Below, piece by piece: positions 1 to 48,177 of a stretch of 64,000 bases of DNA. The stretch is from positions 32,001 through 96,000 of the IMG/VR virus record IMGVR_UViG_3300032233_002382. One strand, 5' to 3'. The DNA is from a virus. Taxonomy: Duplodnaviria > Caudoviricetes. The notes below the pieces were generated by a model. That model was not told where the DNA came from. It saw nothing but the letters and a program-made list of their open reading frames with translations, and did no database searches. The translations under genes and the position numbers were made by a program. Within the stretch, counting starts at the first letter, position 1. Every line of letters begins with the position of its first letter.

Positions 1-237
1 GCCAATGCTGTGTCCGCACATCTCGCAAAATCCGTCTTGTGTAGGCGAATAATATCTGCAGGACTGCGGTTGCCTGTTCGGGTTGCAATTGTCATGATCT
101 AACGACGCGACTCTTGATGCTATATGACTAATTTTCGACATATACACCCCGTTTCACGACCAGACGAGTTAGCAAAAACCTATTGAGGAATTTTCCTGAT
201 TCGTATCCGGAAGTCCGACCCGCCGCACGTTTCATTT

Positions 238-525
238 GTGGAGGCGGCGGGCTTGCCGTCTGGAGGTCAGATGAGCTTCTTGATCAAGCGTCCTTTTGCC
301 GATGGACTTGCGAACGCCATTATCCACAACGGTCTCAAGGAAATCTCGATCGCCTGCGATGACTCGTGCGGGATGATGAAGGACTACAGCCGAAGCGACA
401 TTCGCCTTTACCGTGATAACAAGAACGCGACTCATGAGGTTTGGCCTGAAGTCGGACCTAGCGGGACGGTTTACGCGACGCTGGAAAACATCGAGAAAGC
501 AATCGCCTGGCTGAAGGAGGTCTGA
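238..525 (+). CDS. hypothetical protein (likely start ATG 271)
   Basis: ORF behind motif copy; GGAGG SD before ATG 271. Confidence 0.7.
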   Translation: MEAAGLPSGGQMSFLIKRPFADGLANAIIHNGLKEISIACDDSCGMMKDYSRSDIRLYRDNKNATHEVWPEVGPSGTVYATLENIEKAIAWLKEV

Positions 526-526
526 A

Positions 527-703
527 ATGGTCTACCTGAAGAGTCTGCTGATCGCCGTTGGGATCGTTTACCTCATCGGTTCTTGGGTGAACTGGGTTGG
601 TGAAAGCGATGAACACTTGTTCCGTATCATGAACTGCATGTCAGACCATAAGGATGTGAGCCGTCAAGAAGCTGTGTATCTTTGCGAACGGGAGGTCCGG
701 TGA
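527..703 (+). CDS. small membrane protein (58 aa, not in track)
   Basis: Manual translation MVYLKSLLIAVGIVYLIGSWVNW...; GAGG SD; GTGA overlap with next gene. Confidence 0.6.
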   Translation: MVYLKSLLIAVGIVYLIGSWVNWVGESDEHLFRIMNCMSDHKDVSRQEAVYLCEREVR

Positions 704-1473
704 AGACTTGGGTGATCGGTGATGTGCATGGTTGTTCGGTGGAGCTCGCTCAGCTCCTGAGAATGGCTAGTGGGCTGACACAGAACGAACCGCACCGTTT
801 CATTTTCCTGGGTGACCTTGTACACAAGGGACCGGATCCGAAGGGCGTTATCGCTCAGGTGCGTGGGGTTCTGCATGACCGCCCTGGAAGCGTCTGCCTT
901 GCAGGGAATCATGAGGAGATCGAGATCCGGGCTTCGATGAAGGATCCGAAGAAGACCCCTGAGGAACCCGTACGACAGAAGCTCGACAACCTGTCGGCGG
1001 ACGAGATCGAATTCCTAAAATCCCTCCCTCTCCTCCACCAGTTCGAGGTTGATGGGAGTAAGTACATCGCAGTTCATGGCGGCATTCCTCCTTCCTTCCC
1101 CAAGGCCTATCCGGAGGGAATCGGGGAGATTCCGGCCGACTGGCATAAGGGCGGTGGAAAGAAGATGGACCGCCTGCGCCGGTTTCTTCGCGCAAGGTAT
1201 GTCAACCCGGCAGGCGATATGGTCGCCATGGGACAGGAGAAGCCGGAAGACAAGTTCTGGGCGGAGGTCTATCAGGGCGAGTACGGGGTCGCTCTTTTCG
1301 GGCATGATCCGTCTGAGACTGGAGCGATCCGATTTTTCCCGAATGCTATTGGACTCGACACTGGGTGTGTCTTTGGTCGAAGTCTGACCGCGTACTGCCT
1401 GGAGGATGGACTGATTCTTCAGGTTCAGGCCGAGCGTCAGTACGCCGAATTCCTCAACAGGAACGCAGAGTAG
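700..1473 (+). CDS. calcineurin-like metallophosphoesterase (PPP/ApaH-like)
   Basis: GDVHG, GDLVHKG, GNHE, HGG, GH and GLDTGCVFG motifs; probable GTG start at 700. Confidence 0.92.
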   Translation: MKTWVIGDVHGCSVELAQLLRMASGLTQNEPHRFIFLGDLVHKGPDPKGVIAQVRGVLHDRPGSVCLAGNHEEIEIRASMKDPKKTPEEPVRQKLDNLSADEIEFLKSLPLLHQFEVDGSKYIAVHGGIPPSFPKAYPEGIGEIPADWHKGGGKKMDRLRRFLRARYVNPAGDMVAMGQEKPEDKFWAEVYQGEYGVALFGHDPSETGAIRFFPNAIGLDTGCVFGRSLTAYCLEDGLILQVQAERQYAEFLNRNAE

Positions 1474-1491
1474 ATGTAAGATGAGGAGACC

Positions 1492-2196
1492 ATGACACAC
1501 AAAGATTCAATCGAGTATTACCGCAGCGTTGCGAAGAATTTCCCTCCCCTGAAGAGGGAGGATGAAACCAAACTTTTGAAGAGAGTCAAAAGGGGAGATA
1601 AGCAAGCCCGAGAGCTCCTTGTTAAGCATAACTTAAACCTTATAATTATGCTTGCCAAAAAGCAAGAAAAGACCGGACTGGCACTCGAGGATCTAGTCCA
1701 AGAAGGAATGGCGGGTTTTGTTCATGCCATAGACAAGTTTGACCTCAAGAAGGAAGTGAAGCTATCGACCTACGCGGTTTGGTGGGTCAATGCTTTCATA
1801 TTCCGCCACGCGAGGTCCGCTCGCGGTCCGGTCAAGTTGCCGAACAAGCGGAAGGATGGAGAGCTCCCGCCGTTCCCACGTTCCGTGTCGATGTCGTCGC
1901 CGATCGGGGAAAACGATGACGGAGAGTTTCTGGATTTGTTCGCTGACGAATCGCCGCTCATTGATGAACAATATGACCGTGAGACCGCAAGCGGCGGGAT
2001 TCGCTCATCCCTGAAGAAGATGGGATCCTTAGGATCAATCGGACGTGACATTGTTTATGAGCGTCTAATGGCAGAAGAGCCTATGACGCTCGATGAGATC
2101 GGAAAGCGGCACGGGCTCTCTAGGGAACGAATTCGTCAGTTAGAGGTCGGAGTTAAAGATAAGCTCCGGAAGCGTCTCATGGACTATGCAGCTTAA
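1492..2196 (+). CDS. phage RNA polymerase sigma factor, sigma70 family (RpoH/group-3-like)
   Basis: Region 2 DLVQEGMAGFVHAIDKFD...LSTYAVWW; region 4 MTLDEIGKRHGLSRERIRQLE. Confidence 0.93.
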   Translation: MTHKDSIEYYRSVAKNFPPLKREDETKLLKRVKRGDKQARELLVKHNLNLIIMLAKKQEKTGLALEDLVQEGMAGFVHAIDKFDLKKEVKLSTYAVWWVNAFIFRHARSARGPVKLPNKRKDGELPPFPRSVSMSSPIGENDDGEFLDLFADESPLIDEQYDRETASGGIRSSLKKMGSLGSIGRDIVYERLMAEEPMTLDEIGKRHGLSRERIRQLEVGVKDKLRKRLMDYAA

Positions 2197-2274
2197 ATCG
2201 CATCGGAGATCAGTTCGGTCCGCCGTCTCGTGTGTGGGCGGCGGTGGTCGCCGCCCCTATCCACGGGGTGACGC

Positions 2275-3019: not shown

Positions 3020-3278
3020 GTATCTTCCTCACTACGATAATTTGACTCAAGAATTCCACGACTTCTTTTAAATCGCGTGCGGACGGTACATCGTCAAAAT
3101 ATCTAGTTTCAAGGTCGTTCTGGATCCGGACTGAAACTGGGATTCCTTTCCGAGATTTCGCCCCTATCAAAACAGCCAATCCCGGTTTATCGAAGTATCT
3201 GTTAACGGGTAACTTCGTTGTGGTTCGTGTCTTCACGAGATTTTCGAGATCGGGAAATGGAACCATCAGACCTCCCAC
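3009..3278 (-). CDS. hypothetical protein with C-terminal tag (VRKIHES)
   Basis: ORF; C-terminal motif shared with many ORFs. Confidence 0.65.
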   Translation of the reverse strand: MGGLMVPFPDLENLVKTRTTTKLPVNRYFDKPGLAVLIGAKSRKGIPVSVRIQNDLETRYFDDVPSARDLKEVVEFLSQIIVVRKIHES

Positions 3279-3353
3279 AATACGACGAACGAGTCGGTAG
3301 ATTTCCGAGTGCCTTATGAAGTTCTTATGTGCTTCCGAGTGTAAGGAGAAACC

Positions 3354-3871: not shown

Positions 3872-3989
3872 TCGTATTTATGGTGCATAATCAAGTTCAA
3901 AGTGCGATCGGAGATCGGCTGGCCACGGCGTCATGTGGATGGGACGGCGCCAGCCGCATTTAGCGGCGGCCGCTCCCTTGGAGCCGACC

Positions 3990-4463: not shown

Positions 4464-4554
4464 TCGGCTTAATGTGGATCTGTTTTGAAATAAATCGGAA
4501 ATCGGGCGCGGCTCTCGTCCTGCTTGTGCGGCGCGGTGCCGCAAGGAGTCGACC

Positions 4555-4941: not shown

Positions 4942-5403
4942 GTGGGCGATAACAGGTATCGAAGTAAGGATCCGGCTTTGAATGATGTCCGATTTCGAAT
5001 CACAGAAGAGATCCGCAAGAATATTGAGGCCACGATCCGAGAAGAGATTGGTCGGCAGGTTAACCGTCAGATCACCCCTCTGCTTAAAGGGGATCTGAAT
5101 GGGATCGTCGTCAGGTACGTGGAAGAGGCCGCAAAGGGGCATGTCGGTGCCGTTCTCGGCATCAATTCCAAAGGTAGGACGAACGATCTGTTTAAGCATC
5201 TTGTTAAGGCAGTTGCGTCAGATCCAGACTTCGCCACAAACATGCGTCAGTTTGTTTTAGGAGAGATGAACCAACTGGTGGAGAGGCACTGGGCGAATGC
5301 ATATAAGAATGGTCTCGCAATGAAGATGAGGAAGATGCTTCGAGATACCTGGCGGGAGATGATTGTGCGGGAGATTCAGGAAGAACCTGGAGATGACAAT
5401 TAA
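4942..5403 (+). CDS. hypothetical helical protein
   Basis: ORF 153 aa. Confidence 0.7.
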   Translation: MGDNRYRSKDPALNDVRFRITEEIRKNIEATIREEIGRQVNRQITPLLKGDLNGIVVRYVEEAAKGHVGAVLGINSKGRTNDLFKHLVKAVASDPDFATNMRQFVLGEMNQLVERHWANAYKNGLAMKMRKMLRDTWREMIVREIQEEPGDDN

Positions 5404-5492
5404 ATGAGTCCGGGAATCGGCCGCGCCGCGCGTCCTCTTTGTGGGCGCGCGGGCGGGCGCGTCCGACCCAAATTCCGCCCAGGAGCCGACCA

Positions 5493-6176: not shown

Positions 6177-6285
6177 TCTGAAATGGATGCCTGGTCCCCT
6201 CAATGAGGGGACCAGGCATGGTCCGTAAATCCAACATGGAAGTCGTCTGTCTCCCTCGTTCTCTCTGTGGGCGCGTGGTGCGTCC

Positions 6286-7209: not shown

Positions 7210-7996
7210 GCAAGTGGTCGAAGTCGAAGAATTTATCCCTGAAGTCTGCTTTATACCAGCGTGGGCTGAAACCAAGGTGGGTTTCAGCCCACGCCCATAA
7301 CATGACTTCGAGATGAAGTCTGGGATACAGAGACTGGAACGCTTGTCTGTGGAAGTTGTAAAATGATATGAGATCGTGTAGATGCCCTGTGAAGAACCCA
7401 CCTAAGAATCTCCAATATAATGTTTCGATGTCAGATGTAGGGGATTCTTCCCATCCAGGAATCACTAAACCACATCCCAAGTGATGGAGTTTATTTAGCT
7501 GTGCCAGCGTCTGCGGATGATGTTTCAGGATATGCATTATACCGAAATCGATCCAAGATAATCGTTCATCCGGCACTAATTTCATCGCCCGAACCATGAA
7601 TTCGGTCTTGGCGTTCGTGATGAGGTAGTAGTCTTCGGGCGGATCGGAAATTCGACGTTCCGGTCGTTTAACTTGTGAGCGGACGAACTGGTAAGTCCAT
7701 AGGTCTTGTATGGTAAGATAAACGACGCGGACGTTTGGATAGTTTACTCGACCTTCTAACGACTTGTCTAGAAATAAGATGATCGGAATTTCAGTTGCCG
7801 CAAGAGAATCGAATTCCGCCAAATATTCATCGACAGTCTTTTTAGACGACCCGTCTTCATAACATATGAAGGCCGACACGAACATAAACCACGTTACCTG
7901 GAGAAATAAGTGAAGCCCGCAGACATGACCCTTTTTGGTGGAAACTCGGTTCATCGGATTCTGGACGCATTGGCGTACGAACTGGGTGAGCATCAC
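7196..7996 (-). CDS. HtrL/YibB-family putative glycosyltransferase (start likely MFVSAF)
   Basis: FVSAF, NAKTEF, WIDFGI, WRFLGGFFTG; paralogous to 60178-61724. Confidence 0.75.
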   Translation of the reverse strand: MMLTQFVRQCVQNPMNRVSTKKGHVCGLHLFLQVTWFMFVSAFICYEDGSSKKTVDEYLAEFDSLAATEIPIILFLDKSLEGRVNYPNVRVVYLTIQDLWTYQFVRSQVKRPERRISDPPEDYYLITNAKTEFMVRAMKLVPDERLSWIDFGIMHILKHHPQTLAQLNKLHHLGCGLVIPGWEESPTSDIETLYWRFLGGFFTGHLHDLISFYNFHRQAFQSLYPRLHLEVMLWAWAETHLGFSPRWYKADFRDKFFDFDHLLIPP

Positions 7997-10891: not shown

Positions 10892-11196
10892 TGCTCCTTC
10901 CTCCAGTCCCGCTTAGTTTCACGGGACTTTCGGCGATCCTTCATGATGCGGGTACCAGCCTTTCCGGCCAGCACCATCTGCATCGCAATGTAATTTCGCG
11001 GCTTCTTGACTTCAATTCTCATCTCAAGCTTCGGCTTGTCCATTTGATCCTCCATCAACCAAACGAGCGAACGATCCAATTTCCGAATTCGTTTGACTGT
11101 GGTGTAATTTGTTGTATGGCAGAGAAGCGACCGATACTCGTCATTAAGGGTCAAGCGGCGCTTCCGTTTGCTGATATATGCACAAATAAGCGTCAC
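10885..11196 (-). CDS. basic hypothetical protein
   Basis: KPRNYIAMQM..RK.G pattern; true start probably internal. Confidence 0.5.
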   Translation of the reverse strand: MTLICAYISKRKRRLTLNDEYRSLLCHTTNYTTVKRIRKLDRSLVWLMEDQMDKPKLEMRIEVKKPRNYIAMQMVLAGKAGTRIMKDRRKSRETKRDWRKEQW

Positions 11197-13175: not shown

Positions 13176-13329
13176 GTTCGCAGTTCCATTTCAGGCCGTA
13201 AATCAATGCGTCGTGTACGCTCGGTGGATACCTGTTCATATGTGCCTGACTATGCTTCTTAGCCATTTCAAGCCACTTCTTTTTGTCCTCTTCCGTCACT
13301 TCCGGGATCGGAAACCTGATCGAGGTCAT
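13111..13329 (-). CDS. CxH-x6-C-x4-C miniprotein
   Basis: CEHDKRPGECDNPKCVAEYIHDE. Confidence 0.7.
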   Translation of the reverse strand: MTSIRFPIPEVTEEDKKKWLEMAKKHSQAHMNRYPPSVHDALIYGLKWNCEHDKRPGECDNPKCVAEYIHDE

Positions 13330-14014: not shown

Positions 14015-14028
14015 ACCCCAAAATACAA

Positions 14029-14060
14029 CGAGGCCCCCGTCGAATTCGACGGGGGCCTCG
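14029..14060. repeat. perfect 32-bp palindrome
   Basis: cgaggcccccgtcgaa|ttcgacgggggcctcg. Confidence 0.85.
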
Positions 14061-14071
14061 CAAAACTTCCG

Positions 14072-14449: not shown

Positions 14450-14636
14450 CTCCTTAGATAAACTCTCGGGTGGTCTTCCCGTCGGGGTGGAATTGCACGA
14501 TAACGTCCTTCTTGCCGCTTGCGATCATGTTCATGGCGATCTCCCACTCGAGACTCGCCTCAGGAGGAGCACCGGGGTTGGAGAGGACTGACATGTAGAT
14601 CGGGATGCTCATCTTCTGCGATTGCACTACGCCTCC

Positions 14637-15062
14637 TTAGGGAAAACTAGCGGAATGGCCGCCAAGATCGGTGAACACCTTCGGGTCAATCCCCGGCTTC
14701 TGAGACTTCGCATCTGCCACAACGACTGTGCGGGTCTTATCTTGCATCACCTCACGCACCTTCTCGAGCACCTCCGGAAGAGCGCGCCGGACTTCGGAGA
14801 TGATGACGGTGGCGTCCGGAGACGTCGACCGGACCTCAGCCGAGAACGTTTCGACGTCCATCATATCGACCTCGAGCAAGATCGGCTCAATCCCCTTCTT
14901 CCAACATTCTTCCTTTACCATCATAACAGCTCCGGTCGAGCTGCCGGTCGTTACCAAGAGCGGTTCCCCTGGCTTCATTAGATCCCCGAGAGACGTTCCC
15001 TTGCCGTGGTCACATGACTGGCTCATCAACACCTCCAACGGACGAGCGCCGCGCCCGCCCAC
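14637..15062 (-). CDS. hypothetical, possibly degenerate P-loop/AAA fragment
   Basis: LLVTTGSSTG and VIISE weakly recall Walker A/B. Confidence 0.5.
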   Translation of the reverse strand: MGGRGARPLEVLMSQSCDHGKGTSLGDLMKPGEPLLVTTGSSTGAVMMVKEECWKKGIEPILLEVDMMDVETFSAEVRSTSPDATVIISEVRRALPEVLEKVREVMQDKTRTVVVADAKSQKPGIDPKVFTDLGGHSASFP

Positions 15063-15112
15063 ACAAGGGACGAGCGCGGCGTCCGACTTCCAGATTTACT
15101 TCAGTGGTAGTT

Positions 15113-15709
15113 CTATCCTTTGTCAGTCTCATGGAGAATCTTCTCGATCAACGCCACCCGATACTTCTTTCTCTTAATCTCCTGAAGCTTACTAATTAAG
15201 AGTTGGTTCTGCTTGGCAAGCTCCTGATATTCCCAGACTTCTTTCGGAATCTCGTCATCGGGGACCCGAATTTTCATGCAGAGAGACTCGATGGGTGGTT
15301 TTTCCGCCACGAGTTCATATTCGTACTTACCGTCGAAAATCTCACTCTGACGGAAGTAAATATCGATCTCGGTACCAGGAATCACTAATTCGATCGAAGG
15401 AACGACTTTGGATAGGCTCTTCGGAATGTAGTCGAGAGGACCGTTTGAGTGGGCACCGACCTTGCCAAAGATGAGATTCATTTTCTTCTGAACTTCGGCG
15501 AGTTCCTGGTTGATCAGCTCCTCGGCCTTTGCCGCGATATAGTCGGCAATTTCGGATACGGTGAGCTTGCTCTCGGCATATGTTGCCATCAGGTTGGCCG
15601 TAATTCCATCAATCTTTTCAATCGCGCCAGTCTTCGACATATCGAACCTCCAAAATGGTGACGCCCTGCGCGTCCCACAGAGGGAACGAGCGGGGCGTCC
15701 GACTTCCAT
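15113..15709 (-). CDS. hypothetical protein (start likely MSKTG)
   Basis: ORF behind motif copy. Confidence 0.7.
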   Translation of the reverse strand: MEVGRPARSLCGTRRASPFWRFDMSKTGAIEKIDGITANLMATYAESKLTVSEIADYIAAKAEELINQELAEVQKKMNLIFGKVGAHSNGPLDYIPKSLSKVVPSIELVIPGTEIDIYFRQSEIFDGKYEYELVAEKPPIESLCMKIRVPDDEIPKEVWEYQELAKQNQLLISKLQEIKRKKYRVALIEKILHETDKG

Positions 15710-15938
15710 ATCTGATTTAAGGGATCCGATATTTCACTTCAATAAGTTAGTCGAACGGGTAGTAGTCTCGGATTCACACACCCATCAACCCTGAACTAGT
15801 GCCGGTCTTTCATTATACGTAAGTCGCTTCTCTCTGAAAGTGTAGTTGTCCCGGCATCACTTTCACATCAAAGAGTCGCCTAGGCTAGCCTTACGACCAG
15901 CCCGTACTAACTAGAGAACCATACATAGGGCCTCCTTT

Positions 15939-16268: not shown

Positions 16269-16662
16269 TCTTCTTCGCCTTCTGGATTGCCTGAGCGTAC
16301 TTGGTCAGCTCGTAAACAGCTCTCTCAAACCGGCTGTGCGCTCGCGACCAATCCTGCTTACACTCGAGAGATTGCTTCTCCCAGTCAGCCCCCTTCTCCT
16401 TCTCGAAGCGCTTGAAGTGGTCGTTCTTGTCGTCGTGGGCGTTCACAAGTTCCTCGAGAAGAGAATCGAGTCCCTTGTCCAGCGCCTTGGCCTCGATCTC
16501 AAGACTGTAGAGTCGTGTGCTGACGGCCTTGTTCAGTTCAGTCGTCGCGTTACGGATGGTTTCGATCGCCTTCGTGATCATCTCGGTCTCGGTCATCATA
16601 ACCCCCAAAGAGGGCGGGAGAATCCGCCCACACAACAAACGCACCGACGGCCCGATTTCCAT
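16258..16662 (-). CDS. coiled-coil protein
   Basis: Helical heptads; motif copy at the 5' end. Confidence 0.65.
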   Translation of the reverse strand: MEIGPSVRLLCGRILPPSLGVMMTETEMITKAIETIRNATTELNKAVSTRLYSLEIEAKALDKGLDSLLEELVNAHDDKNDHFKRFEKEKGADWEKQSLECKQDWSRAHSRFERAVYELTKYAQAIQKAKKSAA

Positions 16663-16796
16663 ACTGACTTCAGACTTCCCACCATTGAGCCAAGAACATA
16701 CCGATTAGTGACGTCCAAATACAAGACCACCGAAGGGTCTCATCGGTTGCAAATACACCGATAAAGAACATGAACGAAAGAATACCTTGAGTTCTC

Positions 16797-17539: not shown

Positions 17540-17961
17540 TAGTCCACCACCTCAACATTGTGACGGGAAAGGGAAATGGTCATCGGACGGGGCTTGATCT
17601 CAGGAGCGCCCATCCACGGCTCCATCGGGAGAGAAGCAAGACACTTTTCAAGCGTCGGAATGTGGCCTAGATCTTCGATCACATGAGCCTCGAGGATATC
17701 ACGCACCGCAACGGTCTTTCCATCCGAGTTTGTGATATAGACCCCGAACTTATCTTGGCCTTGGTAGATCCCCCAGGCGTTATGGAGAATCATCCGGTGC
17801 CTCATGTCGGGCACCAGCATTTTCGTGTGGTCCATCCACTCATGAAGCGGGATGTAGTCGTCGAGCTTGCCGCCGAACTTACGAACAGAATTCTTGGCGT
17901 GCGTCAAAGGCTTCATGCGAACCTCCACCGGAGAAACGAGCGGAGCGACCGACTTCCACAT
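17539..17961 (-). CDS. DUF6915-like protein (start likely MKPLTHA)
   Basis: HAKNSVRKFGG..DY..LH.W.D.TK....D.RHR..LH...G....FG...TNSDGK.V.VR...E.HV.EDLG.IP pattern. Confidence 0.8.
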   Translation of the reverse strand: MWKSVAPLVSPVEVRMKPLTHAKNSVRKFGGKLDDYIPLHEWMDHTKMLVPDMRHRMILHNAWGIYQGQDKFGVYITNSDGKTVAVRDILEAHVIEDLGHIPTLEKCLASLPMEPWMGAPEIKPRPMTISLSRHNVEVVD

Positions 17962-17966
17962 TTACT

Positions 17967-18395
17967 TCAGTGCTCGTATGGGTGTGGAACGACAACAACT
18001 TCTCCATCTTCAGTCTCAACTTCCACCGATCGGTTTTCCAGCACCTTCATCTGCAACTTCGGGCTAGTTCCAGCAAAGGCTAGAATTAGGGCTTCATCTG
18101 GGTGGATGGCTTCGTGGTGACCTTCCCCGCACCACATGAACATCCGGATTGGTGGGAAAATGTCCATGTACTTAAGCTTCGGATGATCGATCTTGATGAC
18201 TAGACAGTCTTCAACCCGAGTCTCACCGACTTCCCAAGCGTATCCGTGAGTTTCAATCATTCCCTTGATGCAGGTGCGAGCCCAGCCAGGAAGAGACTTA
18301 ACGTCTTGCTTCTCGAACTTCATCCCGGAATTGACGAGCTCTTCGAACTTATCTGAAACTCTCGCGATCAGATCGTCGATTTCCTTGTCGGTCAT
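17967..18395 (-). CDS. hypothetical protein
   Basis: ORF. Confidence 0.7.
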   Translation of the reverse strand: MTDKEIDDLIARVSDKFEELVNSGMKFEKQDVKSLPGWARTCIKGMIETHGYAWEVGETRVEDCLVIKIDHPKLKYMDIFPPIRMFMWCGEGHHEAIHPDEALILAFAGTSPKLQMKVLENRSVEVETEDGEVVVVPHPYEH

Positions 18396-18396
18396 C

Positions 18397-18822: not shown

Positions 18823-18830
18823 ATTACCTC

Positions 18831-19124: not shown

Positions 19125-19176
19125 GCGCGGCTCCTCCCGTGGTGGGACGAGCCGCGCTGCCGATTTCCGGATTATT

Positions 19177-19491
19177 TTAATCGTGCCCGTATTCGATCAG
19201 AAAAACGCCTGCCATGGCTACGAACATTCCCACTAAAGACATAGGGGAGATGGATTCACCTTCTTTCCATACGACCCAACCAACCGCCATCAAAATGACT
19301 ACTGTTTCCCAGATAACTAGGGATGACCCAAGGTCATTCCCATCCTTCAGGATCTTCGCCCAAATGAAGGCGTCGATCACGTAAGAAGCAAGACCCCAAG
19401 CAATGTGAGTCTTGCCGAGTGACCAACGCTTTAAAAGGATATCACCAAGGACGTTAAATGCAGCGCCGAGAAAAATCCAAAAGAATTTCAT
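19177..19491 (-). CDS. SMR/DMT-family 4-TM small transporter-like protein
   Basis: 104 aa, four hydrophobic segments, E..S....VG G-rich last helix. Confidence 0.7.
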   Translation of the reverse strand: MKFFWIFLGAAFNVLGDILLKRWSLGKTHIAWGLASYVIDAFIWAKILKDGNDLGSSLVIWETVVILMAVGWVVWKEGESISPMSLVGMFVAMAGVFLIEYGHD

Positions 19492-19694: not shown

Positions 19695-19704
19695 TTCGAC
19701 TCCA

Positions 19705-19992: not shown

Positions 19993-19998
19993 TGGAAC

Positions 19999-20304: not shown

Positions 20305-20326
20305 CCAGACACTTTACGTGCCCGGT

Positions 20327-21559
20327 TTATTCGTAGTTGCGGGCCGCAATGAAAATCGGGAACCTCGGAACCTGATCCTTGGACAGCTCGAAGTATCGGA
20401 AGGTGACCTGGGTGCCGACCGGAGGTGGATTTCGTCGGATTGCGTCTGAGATCCCACTACCGATGTTGAACTGAACGCCGTTCGGGAGCTGGCAGATGAG
20501 TCCGCCGGTCATCCCCTTGAGGCGGCCCTTCCCTGGCATGTGTCCAATGACCTCGGCCTCGGCGTCGAAGAATGTCTTGACTTTCAGAAGCGAGTGACTG
20601 CGCTGCGCCTCGTACTTGGAGCCAGGCTCCCGAAGCATCAGACCCTCGCCTCCGAGCGCCTCAATCCGCTTCAGCTCGCTCTTGAGGTGTGCGAAGCCCT
20701 TACAGACCTCCTGATCCAGCATCAGAGCGTACGGAGCGTTCCGAATCAGCTCCTTGGCCTTCGCGATTCGTTCCTCGAACCCTCCAGGAACACTCGGAGC
20801 GTCGAAGACCTCATATTTGACCTGCTTCCATGCGTCGCCGGAGTTCAGGGTCTTCACAACCGAGATCGTTTCAGCGAACTTCCCACGACCGATAATCAGC
20901 TCTCCATCCAGAGGACAGTCGGGTAGACCTGCCTTAAACCACTCAGGGGCCGTGTAGATGTTCCCGTTGCGGGAGAGGAAATCCTTGCCGTCCCAATAGG
21001 CCCGAACCCCATCCCGCTTCTCGCTCAGCCACCATCCGGTCGGGTCCTGCTCGCCGTCCCATGAGTGTGCAAGGAGGACGGGAGGGCCGTAGAGGTCGGC
21101 CTTCTCATCCTGACGGAGCTTCCGCCCCTCCTTCGCGGCCCGCTCGAGCACCTCGCGAGCACGTTCGGGCGTGCAGGTGAACTTCTTGTCCGGTTCCGGA
21201 TTGACCGGATAGCCGTCCGAAGACACGGAGACGGCCTCCGGAGCCTTCTGGGAGACCGGAATGGCCTGAACCACCACCCCTCCCATATTGCGCGCAAGAC
21301 GGGCGGCCTCGTTTGCCTCGCCATGGACCTTCTTGGTGTGCTTACAGGTCTTCAGATCGACCTTCCCACCCGAATTGCGCCAGGCAGGGCAATCGCAAGA
21401 CCAGATTCGGTCGTCGTGATTCTTGACCACGTACGGATTCTTGCCCGATCCCTGAACTGTCGTGGACTCACCGGCTGCAAGCGACATGATTCCTCCATAG
21501 GCGGACGCCCCGCCCACCAGCAGAACGGGCGGAGCGTCGGATTTCCAGATTCGACTCAC
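20327..21559 (-). CDS. lig: ATP-dependent DNA ligase with N-terminal SWIM-like zinc finger
   Basis: SEKRDGVRAYW (KxDG), LDGEL, EGLMLR, LLKVK, OB domain; CDCPAW...CKH N-terminus. Confidence 0.95.
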   Translation of the reverse strand: MSRIWKSDAPPVLLVGGASAYGGIMSLAAGESTTVQGSGKNPYVVKNHDDRIWSCDCPAWRNSGGKVDLKTCKHTKKVHGEANEAARLARNMGGVVVQAIPVSQKAPEAVSVSSDGYPVNPEPDKKFTCTPERAREVLERAAKEGRKLRQDEKADLYGPPVLLAHSWDGEQDPTGWWLSEKRDGVRAYWDGKDFLSRNGNIYTAPEWFKAGLPDCPLDGELIIGRGKFAETISVVKTLNSGDAWKQVKYEVFDAPSVPGGFEERIAKAKELIRNAPYALMLDQEVCKGFAHLKSELKRIEALGGEGLMLREPGSKYEAQRSHSLLKVKTFFDAEAEVIGHMPGKGRLKGMTGGLICQLPNGVQFNIGSGISDAIRRNPPPVGTQVTFRYFELSKDQVPRFPIFIAARNYE

Positions 21560-22917: not shown

Positions 22918-23142
22918 TTAGTGCTCCTTGATTCGCTTGCCATCACCGATCCAAAACATCCCAACCCCGTTCGAGCGGTCGAGCCACTCGTCCAGATTGG
23001 CGTGAAGGAAAGCACGCCATTCGGTATCGGTCATGCCCTTCGAATCATGCTGAGGTGGGCAGATGTCCGAATGGACGCTCTCCCCGTCCTCGTTGAGATA
23101 CTCGATTTCTGCGTGAACTTCGGCCATGTGTGCAACCTCCAC
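22918..23142 (-). CDS. hypothetical protein (start likely MAEVH)
   Basis: Motif copy with GGAGG directly upstream. Confidence 0.7.
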   Translation of the reverse strand: MEVAHMAEVHAEIEYLNEDGESVHSDICPPQHDSKGMTDTEWRAFLHANLDEWLDRSNGVGMFWIGDGKRIKEH

Positions 23143-23180
23143 CCAACGAACGAGCGGAGCGACCGATTTCCGGATTTGAC

Positions 23181-23525
23181 TTAAGCTTCCATGACTTTCT
23201 TGACTTTCTTTAAACTTGGGCAGTCATCAATGATCTTTGATATCTGTTCGGTCGGATCTTGAGTATAGAAATAATAGTGGGCAAGAGACCCTATCATAAA
23301 TATCACTTCATAAAGCGATTTCTGACTGCCTAATATGTACCCGCGAATGAATCCCAGTCTTGTGGCTCTAGAAATATCGCCGCTACCGGCATCGGATAAC
23401 ACGTATCCTGGGACAGCTTCTATAGCTTCTTCAAAAGTCTCGCCGAGTCCGACGCCGATATCCTTAGCCAACAAGCGCTCGTACTGGTTTATACCGTGAA
23501 GGAAGACCCTTATCTGCGGCATCAA
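23181..23525 (-). CDS. hypothetical protein with tag (VKKVMEA)
   Basis: Motif copy with GGAGG directly upstream. Confidence 0.7.
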   Translation of the reverse strand: MMPQIRVFLHGINQYERLLAKDIGVGLGETFEEAIEAVPGYVLSDAGSGDISRATRLGFIRGYILGSQKSLYEVIFMIGSLAHYYFYTQDPTEQISKIIDDCPSLKKVKKVMEA

Positions 23526-23583
23526 ACACCTCCACAGACCGAACGAGCGGAGCGGTCGACTTCCAGATTTGACTCAAATAAGC

Positions 23584-23619: not shown

Positions 23620-23621
23620 AT

Positions 23622-24079: not shown

Positions 24080-24083
24080 ATGG

Positions 24084-24580: not shown

Positions 24581-24797
24581 TACCCTGAACCAGCATCCCT
24601 GAATGCGGGCTCTGGTCCAGGTTAATCATCATCGTAGAACCACAATTGCGGCAATGGTACCGCTCCCAGTAATTGTCAGGGGAACTGTCCGTAATCGACC
24701 ATCGATGACCCATGTGAGCCTCCACGGACCGGACGAGCGGAGCGGACGACTTCCAGATTAGCTTCGATGAACACTCTCGGCTTGTTTCTCTTCGCAA
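24522..24797 (-). CDS. HxW-CxxC-C zinc-finger miniprotein (start MGHRW)
   Basis: HRW...YHCRNC...CEEKQAEQVHAS. Confidence 0.75.
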   Translation of the reverse strand: MRRETSRECSSKLIWKSSAPLVRSVEAHMGHRWSITDSSPDNYWERYHCRNCGSTMMINLDQSPHSGMLVQGNGGKWLTCEEKQAEQVHAS

Positions 24798-27683: not shown

Positions 27684-27758
27684 TATTCACCAACACGCCA
27701 GCGCGGCGGCCCCCATGATAGGAACGCGCCGCGCCGCTGATTTCCGTGTATGATTTAG

Positions 27759-28793: not shown

Positions 28794-28878
28794 GTGATCA
28801 AACCTCCACCGGAGGAACGAGCGGAACGTCGGATTTCCATATTTAGGTTTTTATATACTGTTACACCTGGAGGATATC

Positions 28879-32077: not shown

Positions 32078-32089
32078 AAACCGACCGCG

Positions 32090-32398: not shown

Positions 32399-32818
32399 CT
32401 AATTCGTATCGTCCGTGTCGTCATCTTCATCCGGCTCAGACTTCATGCACGAATCGCAGTACTCGTGGTCGGAGCCGAGATGATTCTGGCAGCTCGGGCT
32501 GATGCAGAAACCGGCTGCCTTCTTTGCAGACTTCACCCGATCGGTTTCGATGGCCGCTGCCATTGAAGTCGGGTGGGCAAGCCACATAGCGCGCTCGATC
32601 AGCACGATCTCGTTCGCCAAAATGATGGGAGGCGCGTTCAGGTCAATGAACCGCTTCAAGCGGGCCACTCGCTGCTCCAGCTTATATTCCCCTGCGAGCT
32701 TAACCTCATCGAGAATCCCATTGTCATTCAAGTCGCTCATCATCTCTCCGTGGCGCGGGCTTGATTGCCCGCTACATAAACGTGCGGCGGCTCCGATTTC
32801 CGCTTTCCATTCGAACAA
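32399..32818 (-). CDS. hypothetical protein (start likely MMSDL)
   Basis: C-terminal C...C..H....YCDSC plus acidic tail. Confidence 0.65.
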   Translation of the reverse strand: MFEWKAEIGAAARLCSGQSSPRHGEMMSDLNDNGILDEVKLAGEYKLEQRVARLKRFIDLNAPPIILANEIVLIERAMWLAHPTSMAAAIETDRVKSAKKAAGFCISPSCQNHLGSDHEYCDSCMKSEPDEDDDTDDTN

Positions 32819-33039: not shown

Positions 33040-33153
33040 CAAAAAGAAGAGGGAGGGCGGCGCACCCAGCTTGGAGCCGACCAAGGCATGGGCCGGATGC
33101 GCCGACCTCCCACCAACTATACGAGCGGGCGCGTCGACTTCCGCGCCTCTTTG

Positions 33154-33405
33154 TCAGTGATACTGATCTGGGGTGTTCGGGACCATATGACCCGCAAGAG
33201 CCGCAGAAGAAATACCCTTTGCGATCGCGTTGATCATATGCGGATCTTCGTCGCCCAACTTCCAAGTCTTTGCATAATCATAAAGAGCAGCAACAACAGC
33301 TCCAGCCTCTTCGGCGGAGAGGCTCGAAAGAATTTCCTGAGCTCGGGTCTTCTCTACATTGGCCTGATGATCGTGCTTATGGTGGCTGTGCATTATTACC
33401 TCCAA
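33154..33405 (-). CDS. hypothetical protein
   Basis: ORF in minus-strand run. Confidence 0.6.
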   Translation of the reverse strand: MEVIMHSHHKHDHQANVEKTRAQEILSSLSAEEAGAVVAALYDYAKTWKLGDEDPHMINAIAKGISSAALAGHMVPNTPDQYH

Positions 33406-34398: not shown

Positions 34399-34471
34399 TT
34401 AGCCTCCGCAGACGGACGCGCCGCCCAGACGAGCGACGGGCGGCGCGTCCGGTTTCCGATTTACTTCATAA

Positions 34472-35107: not shown

Positions 35108-35169
35108 GCCTCCGTGCGCGGGAATCGCGCACCAACAAAACGGACAAGGCGCCCGACTTCCGATATGCT

Positions 35170-35511
35170 TTAGGCAGAACTCACGACGTAAACTGACTCT
35201 TCCATGTAAGACACGTTATTGAGGATGTTTTCCTGGGCATTACTTACTTTGTGCTTAACCGCTTCAATGAGAGCGCATCCAATTGCCATTGAGAGACTCT
35301 CGAATGCACCGAGGTCTTCGTGGTCCATCTCCCATCCTGTGTCGTCATCATAGTACCCGTTGATTTGCGAGACCACCCATTTCTCGTCCACACGATCAAT
35401 GTCGAGGCCGTCGACTTCAAGGTGGTTAGCGTCAACGACCTTGATCTCGGAATTCGGAAATCGCTTCGTGAAAACGTCGATCGCTTCGGTTTCATCAGTG
35501 TTCATTGGCAT
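35170..35511 (-). CDS. hypothetical protein (start about MPMNTDE; track ORF extends through promoters)
   Basis: AGGAG SD and motif copy at 35527-35559. Confidence 0.65.
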   Translation of the reverse strand: MPMNTDETEAIDVFTKRFPNSEIKVVDANHLEVDGLDIDRVDEKWVVSQINGYYDDDTGWEMDHEDLGAFESLSMAIGCALIEAVKHKVSNAQENILNNVSYMEESVYVVSSA

Positions 35512-35688
35512 CTCCTGGTAAGTCGACCACATTATCAACGAGGGAAGCGGCCGATTTCCGACATTCTTCAAAGTAAATACGGAAATCGGAGAGGTCGTCG
35601 CGTCTCTTTGGTGGATCAACCAAATCTCTAATCTAAAGAGCGCTGGAAGTGCGGCGCTGTTGCCGTCCTGTTGCCGGAGGTGCCACAT

Positions 35689-36315: not shown

Positions 36316-36482
36316 TTCGGCAAGGAGTGGCTTACCCGCAATAGGGCGGATAATCCACTGTAAGTTGATAGGACTCCCATCCCACGCAAAGAGCGCCGGA
36401 AGTCGAGGCGGCGGCGCGTCGGTTGGGTGGGCGGCGCGGTGGGTGGTCCACGGCGGTCCGACCCCTTGAGGAGCGAGTAATC

Positions 36483-38673: not shown

Positions 38674-38782
38674 ATACTAATGTCCCAAAAAGAAATTAAA
38701 TACCGCAAAGCACAGCGGAAGTCGGCGCGTCGGCGCGTCTATTTGGTGGGCGGATTGGCCGCCCCCGTATCGGAGGATTGAG

Positions 38783-41400: not shown

Positions 41401-41510
41401 AGTTCCTCCAGTATTACAACACTTCAATAATGGTCTATATAGGTTAAGCAGATCCGGAAGTCGGACGGCCCGACCGTTTCGCATATGCAAGACTAACCAA
41501 CGGAGTCGAA

Positions 41511-42278
41511 ATGCTACTGAGTGAGATGGACGCATCTGATGCCGCCAAAGAAGTGCTCAAGTCTGAGAAAATTCATAAGCTTGGGAGCGAATCTGATCAA
41601 GAGCATGAAGAGAAGGTGGCTCAGATCCACAACGATGTCGCAAGGATTATCGAATTTATTCGGAATGCGAAGATTACTTCCACAGAAATCAAAGCAAATC
41701 GTGGTTCAAAGTATGGATCACTGATTTCGAATCAGTATCCTGGTGTCTACATCCATCAAATCATCACGCTATCTGATGGAAAGCACAAGTACTCAGTAAA
41801 TAATCCCGAATTAATCGCAAAGACTGACTATGCGGACCAGAACAAGATAGTTCCATCAAGTTTCTTCGGGATTTGGGGTGATAAAAGAGTATACCTGAGC
41901 GACCGCTCCCTGTCTCGAATGACCAAAGCCGCTCCGAATCTTGTTAATCTATATCGAAGTGCTCTTGAGATTCGTTTGGGGTTTACGCAGGAAATTGCCG
42001 AACAAGCCGCAGACAAGTATGTGAATAAGAACCAAGGGCGCGCAAAGGCTCAGATTATTAAGAAGATGGGTGGCTTCCTTGCCGAATGCAATCTCAAAGA
42101 TGAGGACCCGGAGTTCCTTCTCCAGATCATGAAGTTCATCTCTCGAGACAACTTCTGGGAGATGAAGAATTTCTTCAATTACTGTCGACGAAATCGTGGT
42201 GATATCAATTTTCTGACACCCGATGAAGTGATCCAGGCTCAAAATCTTGCTAAGGCGATTGAAATCCAGAAGTCCTAA
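41511..42278 (+). CDS. hypothetical protein with tag (IEIQKS)
   Basis: Motif copy upstream. Confidence 0.75.
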   Translation: MLLSEMDASDAAKEVLKSEKIHKLGSESDQEHEEKVAQIHNDVARIIEFIRNAKITSTEIKANRGSKYGSLISNQYPGVYIHQIITLSDGKHKYSVNNPELIAKTDYADQNKIVPSSFFGIWGDKRVYLSDRSLSRMTKAAPNLVNLYRSALEIRLGFTQEIAEQAADKYVNKNQGRAKAQIIKKMGGFLAECNLKDEDPEFLLQIMKFISRDNFWEMKNFFNYCRRNRGDINFLTPDEVIQAQNLAKAIEIQKS

Positions 42279-42349
42279 AGGGAACTGGAAGTCGGACGCG
42301 GCGCGCGTCTTCTTGGTGGGCGACTTGGCGCCCGATATGGAGGCATAAC

Positions 42350-43645: not shown

Positions 43646-44144
43646 CAGTACTACCCTTCATTATCATAACCTGCCTCAAGCCATCAGTGTAATCAAATCG
43701 GCAAAAGTATCCTCAGCCGGTTCTACCCTAAAGGGTAATTCGATTCAAGTAAGGGTTAAGTTTACGAATACGATGGGTCAGCCGTCGATCGGATATTTTT
43801 CGATCAATTCGAGTCGTATTTCAGACTACAAATTCTACGACCCTGGGTTTATGCGAAAATGCTTTCGAATGTCTGCAATCGGGTCGGCTGCTCGAAACCA
43901 GTATGATGACTGGGTTAAGGGAAATCCGGTCGAATTGCGTAGACTTCAGAAAGAAATCCTCGATGCGGCTAAGAAAGAATACTCAGAGGGTGAAGCCACT
44001 AGGCGCAAAAACGAAGCAGTTGTTGCTAAGTGCCGAAAGGCGCTTTCCGAGTGGATGATCCATTCCTTCAAGCACGGGATTGAGCAGGAGGAGATTCTAG
44101 ATATCATGAGGGAGTCGCTCATCAAGTCTACGATGTCCGAGTGA
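43638..44144 (+). CDS. hypothetical protein with tag (IKSTMSE)
   Basis: ORF, coupled. Confidence 0.7.
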   Translation: MRSSTTLHYHNLPQAISVIKSAKVSSAGSTLKGNSIQVRVKFTNTMGQPSIGYFSINSSRISDYKFYDPGFMRKCFRMSAIGSAARNQYDDWVKGNPVELRRLQKEILDAAKKEYSEGEATRRKNEAVVAKCRKALSEWMIHSFKHGIEQEEILDIMRESLIKSTMSE

Positions 44145-44217
44145 TGAAATGCGGAAGTCGGATGCGCCGTGCGTCTCATATGTGGGCGCACGGCGCGCTC
44201 ATTTGTGGAGGTGAATT

Positions 44218-44838: not shown

Positions 44839-45184
44839 AGCCAAGATTAAGGAAGTCATCACCGAGTTCGAAGGTTACCCAAAAGAATATAAGGATCAGA
44901 TGCTACAGAGGTGGTGGGAAATTAGCCCATATCTGGACAATAAGTCCGACATGCTAGCCAAGACTTTATCTTGGATTGCGTACGCCTTTAACCATAAAGA
45001 AGAGTATTGGTGGTCTAGGGAAGCAATTTGGTTTCTGCACAAGAATGATCCTGAAGTATCCGTGTATGCTCTGGTTGATCAGTATGGGTATGATTGGAAG
45101 AACACAGTAATGCCGCAATTAAAGCCAGTGTTTGAAGTGATTGCTCACCCCAGCTTACTTGTCGGTGGAATTCACGGTTCCTGA
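44831..45184 (+). CDS. hypothetical protein with tag (VGGIHGS)
   Basis: Coupled ORF. Confidence 0.65.
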   Translation: MDEAKIKEVITEFEGYPKEYKDQMLQRWWEISPYLDNKSDMLAKTLSWIAYAFNHKEEYWWSREAIWFLHKNDPEVSVYALVDQYGYDWKNTVMPQLKPVFEVIAHPSLLVGGIHGS

Positions 45185-45260
45185 AGCAAATCCGGAAGTC
45201 GCGTGCTGCGCGCGTTCTCTGGGTGGGCGGGCGGTCCGCCCCCATTATGGGAGAGATTAG

Positions 45261-46365: not shown

Positions 46366-46407
46366 TGATCTCCCGTTCAGGTTCTACCGTAACAATACGG
46401 CTTAACA

Positions 46408-46950
46408 ATGGTTCCCATTTACATTCTAAGATCTCGAAAGAGGGTCAATATGGCAGAGGATGGGTACTGGGCAAAGCAATTCCGTGATGGGGCACCCGAG
46501 GCAGTTGCGAAGTCATGGTTGAGCTCTGGCAATCATCAGAATCGAGTCTTGCACCACATCGGTCAAATAGGGATCGATAGACTAGTAGAAAAGACCCAGG
46601 GATCTTGGAAGCGTGAAAATCTGGCTAAAGCAGTGATCGAAGACATGAAGTTGGTACCAGAGATCATCAGGGATATTCAAAGCAGTAGCAATTTTGTCAT
46701 GGGGCCTATTTTATCGGGCCTGTCGGTTAAAGATCAGATCAGCAAGAATGATATTCAAGCCAAGATGTGGCTTGACAAGAGCCCAGACCATGTGATTTTT
46801 TATGGTCCATATAGCGAGACGTTAGAGACATTTCTTATTTCTGAAGTCGGTAAGGTCATTTCGAATTCTGAATGGTTTAAAAAGAACATCAAGTCGATTC
46901 GAAGTGCAGCAGCCAAGATCAATGCAGTTAAGAAGGTAATGAACCAGTAA
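46408..46950 (+). CDS. hypothetical protein with tag (VKKVMNQ)
   Basis: ORF; start likely MAEDG. Confidence 0.7.
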   Translation: MVPIYILRSRKRVNMAEDGYWAKQFRDGAPEAVAKSWLSSGNHQNRVLHHIGQIGIDRLVEKTQGSWKRENLAKAVIEDMKLVPEIIRDIQSSSNFVMGPILSGLSVKDQISKNDIQAKMWLDKSPDHVIFYGPYSETLETFLISEVGKVISNSEWFKKNIKSIRSAAAKINAVKKVMNQ

Positions 46951-47018
46951 TCTATTGTATCCATTTTGGGACAGGTACCCCAAATTCATAAACCAAGTAC
47001 CTACCATGGAGAGTTAGT

Positions 47019-47369
47019 ATGTTTAATCGTGTTCCGGTCCAGAACGACATCATGAACAACACTGTAGGTGAGACGTCTGTCGAAGGACGAATTATTCCGG
47101 TCGGTCGTGGCGGTGAAGCAATCGTGTTCGAAATTCCGATGGGGTTCTTCAAGATTGTAGCAATCGCCAACATTCCTGAGGAAGGCGCTGAGAAGGCGCC
47201 AGTCTACCTCAAGCTCAAGGTAGGCGATTTTGCGTATCAGCGGGCTCAGAATGCACAGGCTCGTGCGAATAGCCGCCGTGCCGCTCGACAGGCTCAGTAC
47301 GCAAACAATGGACATGACTCGGACGTAGATGATGGTGATTATGAAGGTGATGATTCCCATCCCGCGTAA
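47019..47369 (+). CDS. hypothetical protein with acidic tail
   Basis: GGAG SD. Confidence 0.7.
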   Translation: MFNRVPVQNDIMNNTVGETSVEGRIIPVGRGGEAIVFEIPMGFFKIVAIANIPEEGAEKAPVYLKLKVGDFAYQRAQNAQARANSRRAARQAQYANNGHDSDVDDGDYEGDDSHPA

Positions 47370-47406
47370 AGCGGCGCGGAAGTCTCGCGGTCGGCGCGTC
47401 CGATAG

Positions 47407-48177
47407 GTGGGCACGGGGCGCGAGTCGCGGTGGCGCGGGGATGATCTGGTGCATTGTGCACTGGACCTCCCCCGCAGCGAGCTCCCTCCCCGAATGGAGG
47501 CCCAAATGCAGACGCAGAATGGTTCGGCGCTCGAGATCCTCAAGTCACTCGGTGTTTTCCAGATGGTCGCTCCCCCGCAGGTCCCTGCCGTTTCGGATCC
47601 CGCACTCTCCGGCGCGGTTCGTGAGAAGAATGTGGTCCGTCTCGGCGAGGATCCCTCGATCCAGACCAAGGCGGAGCATGCGGCTCAGCTGAAGGCGGCG
47701 CTCGAGAAGGCGCAGTCCGACTTCGAGGCCATCCAGGGTGAGATCAGGGAGTACGGCAAGGAGAAGCGGGACGCCTTCAACGACCACTTCCGGACCAACA
47801 TCACCACCGTTGCAATCCCATACGGTGATGAGAAGGCGGTGCAGGTCATTTGCGCCAACCGGTACTCGGTCAAGAAGGACATCATCCTGAACAACAAGGC
47901 GGCGTTGGGCTCGACGGTGAATGATCTTTTCACGATTGAGACCACGCGTTCGCTCAAGGCCAAGGGAGAGGACCTGCTTCGTCGGCTCCTCGTCGAGGTC
48001 GGTGTTCAGGCGAAGGACGTGGAGTTCGTCCTCAACGAGCTTACTGAGGTCGAGCACACGGTCAAGACGGTGGAGGATTACGAGCAGAAGGCCAAGCTTG
48101 TGACCGATACCGGAGTTCAGGAGATCTTGGCTCAGGCGGTCTCCCGCGCCTCCCCTGCTCTCAAGTTCGTCGGTTAG
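47407..48177 (+). CDS. hypothetical helical protein (start likely MQTQN)
   Basis: GC-rich codon usage; motif copy upstream. Confidence 0.7.
   Translation: MGTGRESRWRGDDLVHCALDLPRSELPPRMEAQMQTQNGSALEILKSLGVFQMVAPPQVPAVSDPALSGAVREKNVVRLGEDPSIQTKAEHAAQLKAALEKAQSDFEAIQGEIREYGKEKRDAFNDHFRTNITTVAIPYGDEKAVQVICANRYSVKKDIILNNKAALGSTVNDLFTIETTRSLKAKGEDLLRRLLVEVGVQAKDVEFVLNELTEVEHTVKTVEDYEQKAKLVTDTGVQEILAQAVSRASPALKFVG

Follow-up and report, generated by a model that had tools for sequence, protein, structure and literature searches.

The 64,000-nucleotide stretch analysed here (the window) comprises bases 32,001-96,000 of IMG/VR record IMGVR_UViG_3300032233_002382, a linear 307,777-bp metagenome virus record, and contains a repeated intergenic element in which a first box, GGAAGT or a close variant, stands at a rigid distance before a second box, CGT. 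On the sequence analysis presented below, this element probably represents a phage-specific class of promoter, read by the host RNA polymerase with an extracytoplasmic function (ECF)-like sigma factor that is itself probably encoded by the phage. A private set of sigma factor and promoters is a familiar phage strategy; the dialect of the consensus is new.

The window contains 18 exact matches to the pattern GGAAGT-N13-CGT, where shuffled sequences give 0.64 ± 0.70 (maximum 2); allowing A or G at position 5 of the box brings the count for the 307,777-bp genome to 44, of which 40 lie within genome positions 13.9-82.5 kb. CGT itself belonged to the selecting pattern. A 49-nt position matrix built from the copies, with a membership cut-off score of at least 20, gives 45 sites genome-wide, every one in a single 66-kb block (genome 14.1-79.4 kb) and 31 of them in the window (209 to 47378), and the matrix scan found no credible copies in the other ~240 kb of the genome. 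The preliminary description, made from the window alone, had counted thirty copies between 209 and 47410. The family is real and continues upstream of the window with 14 more copies, but five matches of the regular expression (14070, 22224, 30221, 35456 and 50533) do not belong to it: that at 14070 is an intrinsic terminator, kept in a relative from which the box is missing, and the other four score below 8.

The full consensus reads RAAG-N6-YGGAARTCGG..CCGC.CGTY-N6-GTGGG, with RAAG at positions -11 to -8, a pyrimidine before GGAART, then CGG, a C/G-rich stretch with CCGC at 14-17, CGTY at 19-22, six variable positions and GTGGG.G at 29-35. A C follows GGAA(G/A)T in 34 of 40 copies, and GGAGAT, GGAAAC, GGAAGC and GGGAAT occur as variant first boxes among the matrix copies. 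The distance from GGAAR to CGT is 14 nt (13 after the hexamer); scored by two half-site matrices, it is canonical at 32 sites and one nucleotide longer at two (one being copy 35581), with none at the other offsets from -3 to +3. The rigid 13-nt spacer reported earlier is thus borne out, as are the GTGG 7 nt after CGT, seen in the aligned copies, and the AA ~10 nt upstream of the box, which occupies -10/-9 and is part of RAAG. The A's of RAAG double as the upstream TAA or TGA stop codon in ~18 copies, this stop ending 8-13 nt before the box, and copies without a stop at that position still carry AAAG or GAAG. No shared C-terminal peptide tag was seen by eye in the open reading frames (ORFs) ending just before copies, and no other strongly repeated upstream word was found beyond the block. 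The block has 9 promoters of the sigma-70 type, no enrichment over the 13 ± 3.8 of shuffles, and near-consensus sigma-70 promoters form no large class in the genome.

All 45 cores lie between called genes, and 44 of the 45 copies are co-oriented with the next gene, with 39-86 nt between the box and its start codon; random orientation genome-wide, which the preliminary description had named as contrary evidence, was not seen. The 66-kb block consists mostly of ORFs of 50-250 aa, with about one copy per one or two small genes. The back-to-back divergent pair described earlier is real, with copies 35559 (-) and 35581 (+) standing at a strand switch. Copies 38717 and 41456 stand behind opposite-strand genes, and copy 23564 lies directly after a strong terminator (23620-23583), which follows a tRNA-Met gene. 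GTGG also runs into the ribosome-binding site, as had been noticed, and GTGGAGG serves as this site in ~8-10 copies. Behind copy 33142 there is no ORF, only a long hairpin with a T-run and then the genes for tRNA-Leu and tRNA-Ser, which rules out a signal for translation. This long GC hairpin, at 33041-33118 (-) between the copy and tRNA-Leu, reads GGGAGG.CGGCGCA ... TGCGCCG.CCTCCC, then TCTTCTTTTT; it may mark the end of a short transcript or act as an attenuator before the tRNA genes.

Relatives of the phage were reached through proteins and not by motif scanning; among the matches listed, pattern scans of IMG/VR and of the JGI metagenomes gave only single matches inside coding sequence and no copy-rich relative. 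On two related contigs, L154 and L155, the orthologous proteins share 53-63% identity, and the same motif recurs in syntenic gaps (2 copies in L154, 5 in L155) with stems of their own. In L177, with a 92%-identical AAA ATPase, GGAAGTC, CGT and GGTGGGC are kept before that gene and the spacer is rewritten. The matrix scores nothing in more distant phages, which have dialects in the same intergenic, co-oriented places. That of L157 (73%, GC 54%) is GGAA(A)C-N14/15-CGTAC-N5/6-GTGGAGG; L158 (65%, GC 63%) has GGGGCGGAGCC, ~13 nt, then CGTAYCGGGG and GGAGG; and L156 and L176 (80-82%) have AAG, a perfect GC hairpin ending in CGTAG and then a second hairpin. The post-CGTAG hairpin can resemble a full terminator (for example AAAAGCGGCG-loop-GCCGCTTTTTT) between the putative promoter and the ribosome-binding site (L176:352-428 and L176:18158-18251). 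The dialects have in common a first box rich in G, a stretch of C and G leading into CGT(A), and a G-rich start beside the ribosome-binding site, and CGTA(C/T) stands at the second box in L156, L157, L158 and L176. The architecture is kept across phages of 46-63% GC while the words drift, which argues that the recognition protein travels with the phage; judged from these dialects, a sigma factor encoded by the phage is more likely than one of the host. The promoter reading of the preliminary description gains from the intergenic and co-oriented placement, the copies at a strand switch and after a terminator, the copy with no ORF behind it, the two boxes at fixed spacing, and the retention of these boxes while spacers diverge.

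As to mechanism, the host core polymerase with an ECF-like (group 4-like) sigma factor would contact YGGAART as a -35-type box (~-31 to -26), and CGTY, preceded by the C/G-rich CCGC, would be the -10-type box (~-11 to -8). RAAG, ~10 nt upstream of the first box, may be an extra upstream contact. The start is predicted 7-9 nt beyond the second box, at the G's of GTGGG. Because GTGGAGG is used as a ribosome-binding site, the start serving the next gene should lie between CGT and position 31, and this limit matches the 6-9 nt after the -10 box at which ECF promoters usually start. The transcript would begin in one of three ways: as the ribosome-binding site GUGGAGG; as a GC-rich 5′ stem-loop protecting the mRNA; or as the 3′ arm of an inverted repeat with its 5′ arm in the promoter spacer, in which case only read-through RNA from upstream could fold the hairpin. 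The ~45 modules would make each small gene or gene pair of this early-type 66-kb block its own transcription unit and, as a by-product, would act as homology patches at which relatives swap genes.

Group 4 ECF promoters include GGAAC-N16/17-CGTT of the alphaproteobacterial EcfG and TGAAAC-N16-CGTA of Bacillus sigma-W. The motif shares with them an upstream GGAA... box and a downstream CGT box, a G/C-rich spacer of fixed length and many near-identical copies in one regulon. One copy (209) has a sigma gene behind it, a layout like that of autoregulation; the two-domain sigmas (regions 2 and 4) of ECF promoters are usually autoregulated in this way. The likeness is strengthened by L157, which uses GGAAC/GGAAAC and CGTAC outright, and it stands as first described, with 14 nt between GGAAR and CGT against 16-17 nt in ECF promoters. 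However, the first box GGAA(G/A)TC has no C at the AAC position, a third block (GTGGG) lies at the predicted start, RAAG lies upstream, and there are ~45 copies in a virus, with an adjacent sigma factor that is RpoS/RpoH-like in region 2. Even L157, with its spacer of 15 nt, falls 1-2 nt short. The ECF resemblance is genuine, but membership fails on the AAC core and on spacer length.

Several observations weigh against a promoter read by an ECF-like sigma factor. Canonical ECF promoters have an AAC in the -35 word that is missing here, and their spacer is 2-3 nt longer. The sigma factor encoded in the window has a region 2 like that of RpoS, RpoH and RpoD and keeps the Y/W/W melting residues of sigmas that read A-11, a poor fit to a CGT -10 box. 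In about a third of the copies a GC-rich inverted repeat encloses the -10 box and the predicted start in its loop, which a plain promoter does not need, and some downstream hairpins of L176 carry terminator-like T-runs. A search for RNA records matching 14600-24500 and 14950-16750 listed none, and the start site is a predicted one. Finally, the record is only ~72% complete and a polymerase may lie in the missing part. Multisubunit RNA polymerase was not found with Pfam models, nor was any N4-like or T7-like polymerase detected, the single-subunit model PF00940 giving no match here and likewise none in control genomes.

The phage has four sigma-like genes, and these, together with the negative searches for a polymerase of its own, speak for the sigma-dependent reading. 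The one in the window (1492-2196 (+), 234 aa), third gene behind copy 209, encodes a sigma-70-family protein with regions 2 and 4, which matches TIGR02937 over its full length (77.8 bits, above cut-off) and has a region 2 nearest to those of RpoS, RpoH and RpoD. Used as a query, it recovers only bacterial sigmas of ~30% identity, many of them actinobacterial, from which no host was inferred. It is a candidate for the cognate sigma or for that of the next stage. Of the other three, one (219 aa, genome 144 kb) shows a weak region 2, the second (273 aa, 283 kb) has a pair of region-4 domains, and the third (428 aa, 306 kb, at the contig end) has a C-terminal part that is ECF-like. The cognate sigma may be the protein encoded in the window or, almost as probably, one of the other three; a host sigma is a somewhat less likely candidate. 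No homologues of the sigma-like proteins were found in the loci of relatives that were examined. Ahead of the 428-aa gene, TTGACT-N18-TATAAT with TG (genome 307,490-307,528 (-)) comes near the sigma-70 promoter consensus, as few sites in the genome do; this gene could be an immediate-early switch. A 212-aa ORF (genome 18786-19424) with a weak sigma-like match was rejected: it matches no Pfam family, a search of 1.8 billion representatives gave no homologue, and its single-sequence fold, with a predicted local distance difference test (pLDDT) score of 49, is unusable.

What follows the second box takes three forms among the copies: the ribosome-binding site itself, a GC hairpin at the 5′ end, or the closing arm of a stem that begins in the spacer. 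GC-rich hairpins occur downstream of or around the -10 box in ~30 of the 45 copies, and ~10 to a third have none. A downstream-only GC hairpin starting at the G's (GGGCGG-loop-CCGCCC) is present in ~17 copies. In another ~13 the spacer provides the 5′ arm and the G-rich stretch the 3′ arm of a stem of 7-13 bp, CGTY-N6-GTG lying in a loop of 11-19 nt. None of the hairpins of the copies passes the terminator scan, and most are without a T-run. The embracing inverted repeats carry a further, rather unlikely reading, in which secondary structure would be part of the promoter mechanism. This could take the form of a structure-assisted promoter, in which a cruciform or hairpin would present the region to be melted, as in the N4 principle but with a sigma-dependent polymerase, or of a self-insulating module, where RNA reading through from upstream would fold a hairpin not open to transcripts that start at the promoter, leaving each small gene an isolated transcription unit. 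The L156/L176 dialect, the whole spacer of which is a perfect hairpin ending at CGTA, bears on this reading.

The same hairpins could belong to a signal at the RNA level, where a long polycistronic RNA would be cut or insulated between genes by a ribonuclease or RNA-binding protein of phage or host at the conserved words and the GC hairpin, giving monocistronic mRNAs that begin near GUGG. Native spacer/downstream pairs do fold better than swapped pairs (permutation p = 0.0006), the stems differ among copies and orthologues with two compensatory pairs, and the element sits exactly between the stop codon and the ribosome-binding site. Yet the embracing hairpin is limited to the ~13 copies given above, the invariant words are unpaired with one another and fixed-register covariation across all copies is absent, CCGC/GTGG pairing being no better than the column make-up predicts. 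The two compensatory pairs were the only ones among four orthologous or paralogous copies, a weak test that 61 of 500 shuffles equal. The divergent pair and the copies behind opposite-strand genes or after the strong terminator stand where no same-strand upstream transcript is expected, and the two-box architecture with ECF words in relatives points to a DNA site, so that an RNA-level signal is improbable.

In the middle promoters of T4, the distance from the Mot box to the -10 box is ~13 nt. A phage activator bound at about -30 could likewise redirect the host primary sigma, as MotA/AsiA do, with no dedicated sigma. The spacing agrees, since ~30 nt separate the first box from the predicted start and 13 nt separate it from the second box, and the upstream RAAG box is present. 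However, the second box is CGTY or CGTAC and not TAnnnT, no conserved A/T-rich -10 lies between the box and the ribosome-binding site, and sigma-70-type matches are not enriched, which leaves an activator of this kind very improbable. Promoter-middle stem-loops have been reported (PMC4122927).

Recombination was considered as the primary function, with the element as a cassette boundary, an integron attC-like site or the target of a phage recombinase, and promoter activity secondary. The comparison used contigs from four freshwater, riverine and lagoon metagenomes over 14600-24900, most pieces being less than 90% alike and a minority 90-99%. In these contigs joints occur at elements (15097/15646, 19138 and 19173) and off elements (17530/17536). 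In one of them the ORF at 15113-15640 is replaced by 336 other letters between two retained elements, and indel breakpoints fall at 19138/19173 and across 16597-16674. A copy in L154 has the same stem as a non-orthologous window copy, and L155 has a copy (L155:3588) where the window has none. But other breakpoints lie at plain, motif-free gene junctions such as 17530/17536, selection would in any case favour breakpoints at gene boundaries, and the 17957-to-23541 joint involves 38 repeated letters only and may be an alignment artefact. In integron attC sites, complementary inverse-core and core sites flank an imperfect palindrome. With no such core pair, no inverse repeat of GGAAGTC in the consensus (no reverse complement of the first box lies downstream, and hairpins are absent from a third of copies), and a strict co-orientation and fixed start-codon distance that transcription explains, a recombination site is the least probable of these readings.

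Among known composite modules, the promoter-early stem-loops (PeSLs) of T4-type phages combine a sigma-70 promoter (TTGACA-N17-TATAAT) with an AT-rich upstream region and an adjacent stem-loop shown to terminate transcription, and they mediate gene shuffling (PMC2839356, PMC4122927). The likeness drawn to them in the preliminary description holds in part. In both, promoter and G...C stem-loop form small modules between orphan genes (here about one for every one or two genes) within a plastic and early-expressed region of a large phage; some of the breakpoints of gene insertions or replacements in relatives of the present phage lie at modules and others do not. The two kinds of module are unlike in promoter type and in where the stem-loop lies, the present element having ECF-like words in place of TTGACA/TATAAT and a stem-loop downstream of or around the -10 box, mostly without a T-run. 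Recombination is suggested here by contig comparisons alone.

The proposed promoter class also resembles the sigma systems of SPO1 (gp28 and gp33/34), phiEco32 (gp36) and T4 (gp55), in which a phage sigma redirects the host polymerase to a private consensus before operons. It differs from these in its consensus, its far larger number of copies (one per 1-2 genes), its dialects among huge phages and a cognate sigma that is only a candidate. Promoters of the giant N4 virion RNA polymerase have an obligatory hairpin with a 5-7-bp stem and a 3-nt loop upstream of the start. The inverted repeat that brackets the -10 box and start in a third of the present copies could similarly be presented as a DNA hairpin; unlike in N4, the loops are 11-19 nt, most copies have no repeat and the matching polymerase was not detected with the models named above.

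The individual copies, named by the position of G1 and given with their extent, strand and matrix score, begin with copy 209 (197..245 (+), 44.3), which has a spacer/downstream hairpin and heads the operon containing the sigma gene. It is followed by copy 2205 (2193..2241 (+), 25.6), with the variant box GGAGAT and a 5′ hairpin, and by copy 3306 (3270..3318 (-), 25.8), where GTGGGAGG is the ribosome-binding site. A weak, probable copy with the box GGAGAT lies at 3910 (3898..3946 (+), 15.7). Next are copy 4497 (4485..4533 (+), 38.2), with a 5′ hairpin, copy 5412 (5400..5448 (+), 49.2), with the variant box GGGAAT and a spacer/downstream hairpin, and copy 6238 (6226..6274 (+), 40.9). Copy 7646 (7634..7682 (+), 34.6) is followed by 260 nt without a called gene; the 700 nt at 7210-7909 have no confident plus-strand gene though this copy points into them, and an opposite-strand ORF of 266 aa overlaps.

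On the minus strand, copy 11084 (11048..11096 (-), 43.9) has ATGGAGG as its ribosome-binding site. Copy 15091 (15055..15103 (-)) has the best score (57.1) and an 8-bp spacer/downstream hairpin, with the gene-replacement breakpoint of a relative at 15097. The hairpin of copy 15707 (15671..15719 (-), 50.4) shows compensatory changes in orthologues. Upstream of this copy, at 15710-15938 (-), is a gene-free stretch (230-330 nt) kept in two relatives (L154:2226-2500 and L155:2038-2295), which repeats GTGAAG.CGGGACAACC..CCGTTC twice and GAAATACCG three times and is a candidate small RNA or regulatory region. Copy 16660 (16624..16672 (-), 47.0) has the 5′ hairpin GGGCGG-loop-CCGCCC; in copy 17957 (17921..17969 (-), 52.5) GTGGAGG is the ribosome-binding site and ATG lies 41 nt from G1; and copy 19168 (19132..19180 (-), 36.8) has a 9-bp spacer/downstream hairpin ending at ATG, with breakpoints of relatives at 19138 and 19173. 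Copy 21546 (21510..21558 (-), 54.3) stands before the DNA ligase gene, and copies 23171 (23135..23183 (-), 54.4), 23564 (23528..23576 (-), 53.0; the post-terminator copy) and 24754 (24718..24766 (-), 50.8) follow. A spacer/downstream hairpin is found in copy 27745 (27709..27757 (-), 37.9) and GTGGAGG as ribosome-binding site in copy 28838 (28802..28850 (-), 38.6).

Copy 32801 (32765..32813 (-), 37.6) lies just after tRNA-Ser, and copy 33142 (33106..33154 (-), 41.7) is the one followed by the hairpin and tRNA genes. The strongest spacer/downstream hairpin belongs to copy 34457 (34421..34469 (-), 39.9), with the variant box GGAAAC, and copy 35161 (35125..35173 (-), 42.9) has a 5′ hairpin. The divergent pair consists of copy 35559 (35523..35571 (-), 37.7) leftward and copy 35581 (35569..35618 (+)) rightward, the latter with a spacer of 14 and not 13 nt; copy 35645 (35633..35681 (+), 19.6) has CCGGAGG as its ribosome-binding site. 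Copy 36398 (36386..36434 (+), 44.4) stands before the AAA ATPase gene and has an orthologous element in five relatives. The two copies behind opposite-strand genes are 38717 (38705..38753 (+), 49.1), before the DUF2201 gene, and 41456 (41444..41492 (+), 41.5). Copies 42287 (42275..42323 (+), 53.6) and 45194 (45182..45230 (+), 53.4) have 5′ hairpins; between them, copy 44153 (44141..44189 (+), 48.8) has a 10-bp spacer/downstream hairpin with a stem near-identical to that of a non-orthologous copy in L154. Copy 47378 (47366..47414 (+), 39.6) is the last of the block.

The record has a GC content of 46% and an estimated completeness of 72%, and a rough gene call makes 86% of the genome coding; no close DNA relatives were found in the phage record collection. 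The motif block (genome 13.9-80 kb) has a GC content of 50-52% vs 42-47% in the remaining genome, and ribosome-binding sites of the form TGGAGG(T) vs AAGGAG(A) elsewhere. The window has nine tRNA genes, and its protein genes include DNA ligase, the AAA ATPase with its DUF2201 partner, an adenylosuccinate-lyase-like gene and sugar-modifying enzymes; the large structural genes are located outside it. A match to the Rfam wcaG RNA (32083-32173 (-), 44.4 bits vs a gathering score of 42) lies between a protein gene and tRNA-Leu(taa) of the tRNA cluster. At 14028-14061 (-) a strong intrinsic terminator, not followed by a motif copy, stands directly before the gene for ATP_bind_3 (13268-14008), so the transcription of this gene must read through or begin elsewhere; the layout is kept in a relative (L155:4025-4086).

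Upstream of the window, an adenylosuccinate-synthetase-like protein (genome 3879-5054 (-), L028:3879-5054) matches the PurZ structures 7odx and 6fm1 over its full length (E ~6e-31) and has GSSGKG at the P-loop position. Its gene adjoins those for a ThyX and a dNMP kinase (L028:1931-3235 (-) belongs to the same set of loci), and a PurB-like lyase is encoded in the window (49477-50775 (+)). The phage may produce 2-aminoadenine DNA. No link between such DNA and the motif was found, and the idea that a 2-aminoadenine genome forces an A-free -10 box was rejected, T being common in the predicted bubble and the A of CGTA being kept in relatives.

For an uncultivated clade of huge freshwater phages (relatives on contigs of 257-436 kb), the element would provide a readable transcription map, with ~45 start signals for the early-type block and a short list of sigma candidates. 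The dialects GGAAGTC, GGAAAC and GGGGCGGAGCC, each with CGT or CGTA, would constitute a natural experiment in sigma-promoter co-evolution, in which covariation could name the cognate sigma. As a compact, rigid and orthogonal promoter with a private sigma, the element would be of a part type used in synthetic biology. In the biology of these phages, it would extend the PeSL idea of shuffling modules made of promoter plus stem-loop beyond T4-type phages and beyond sigma-70 promoters.

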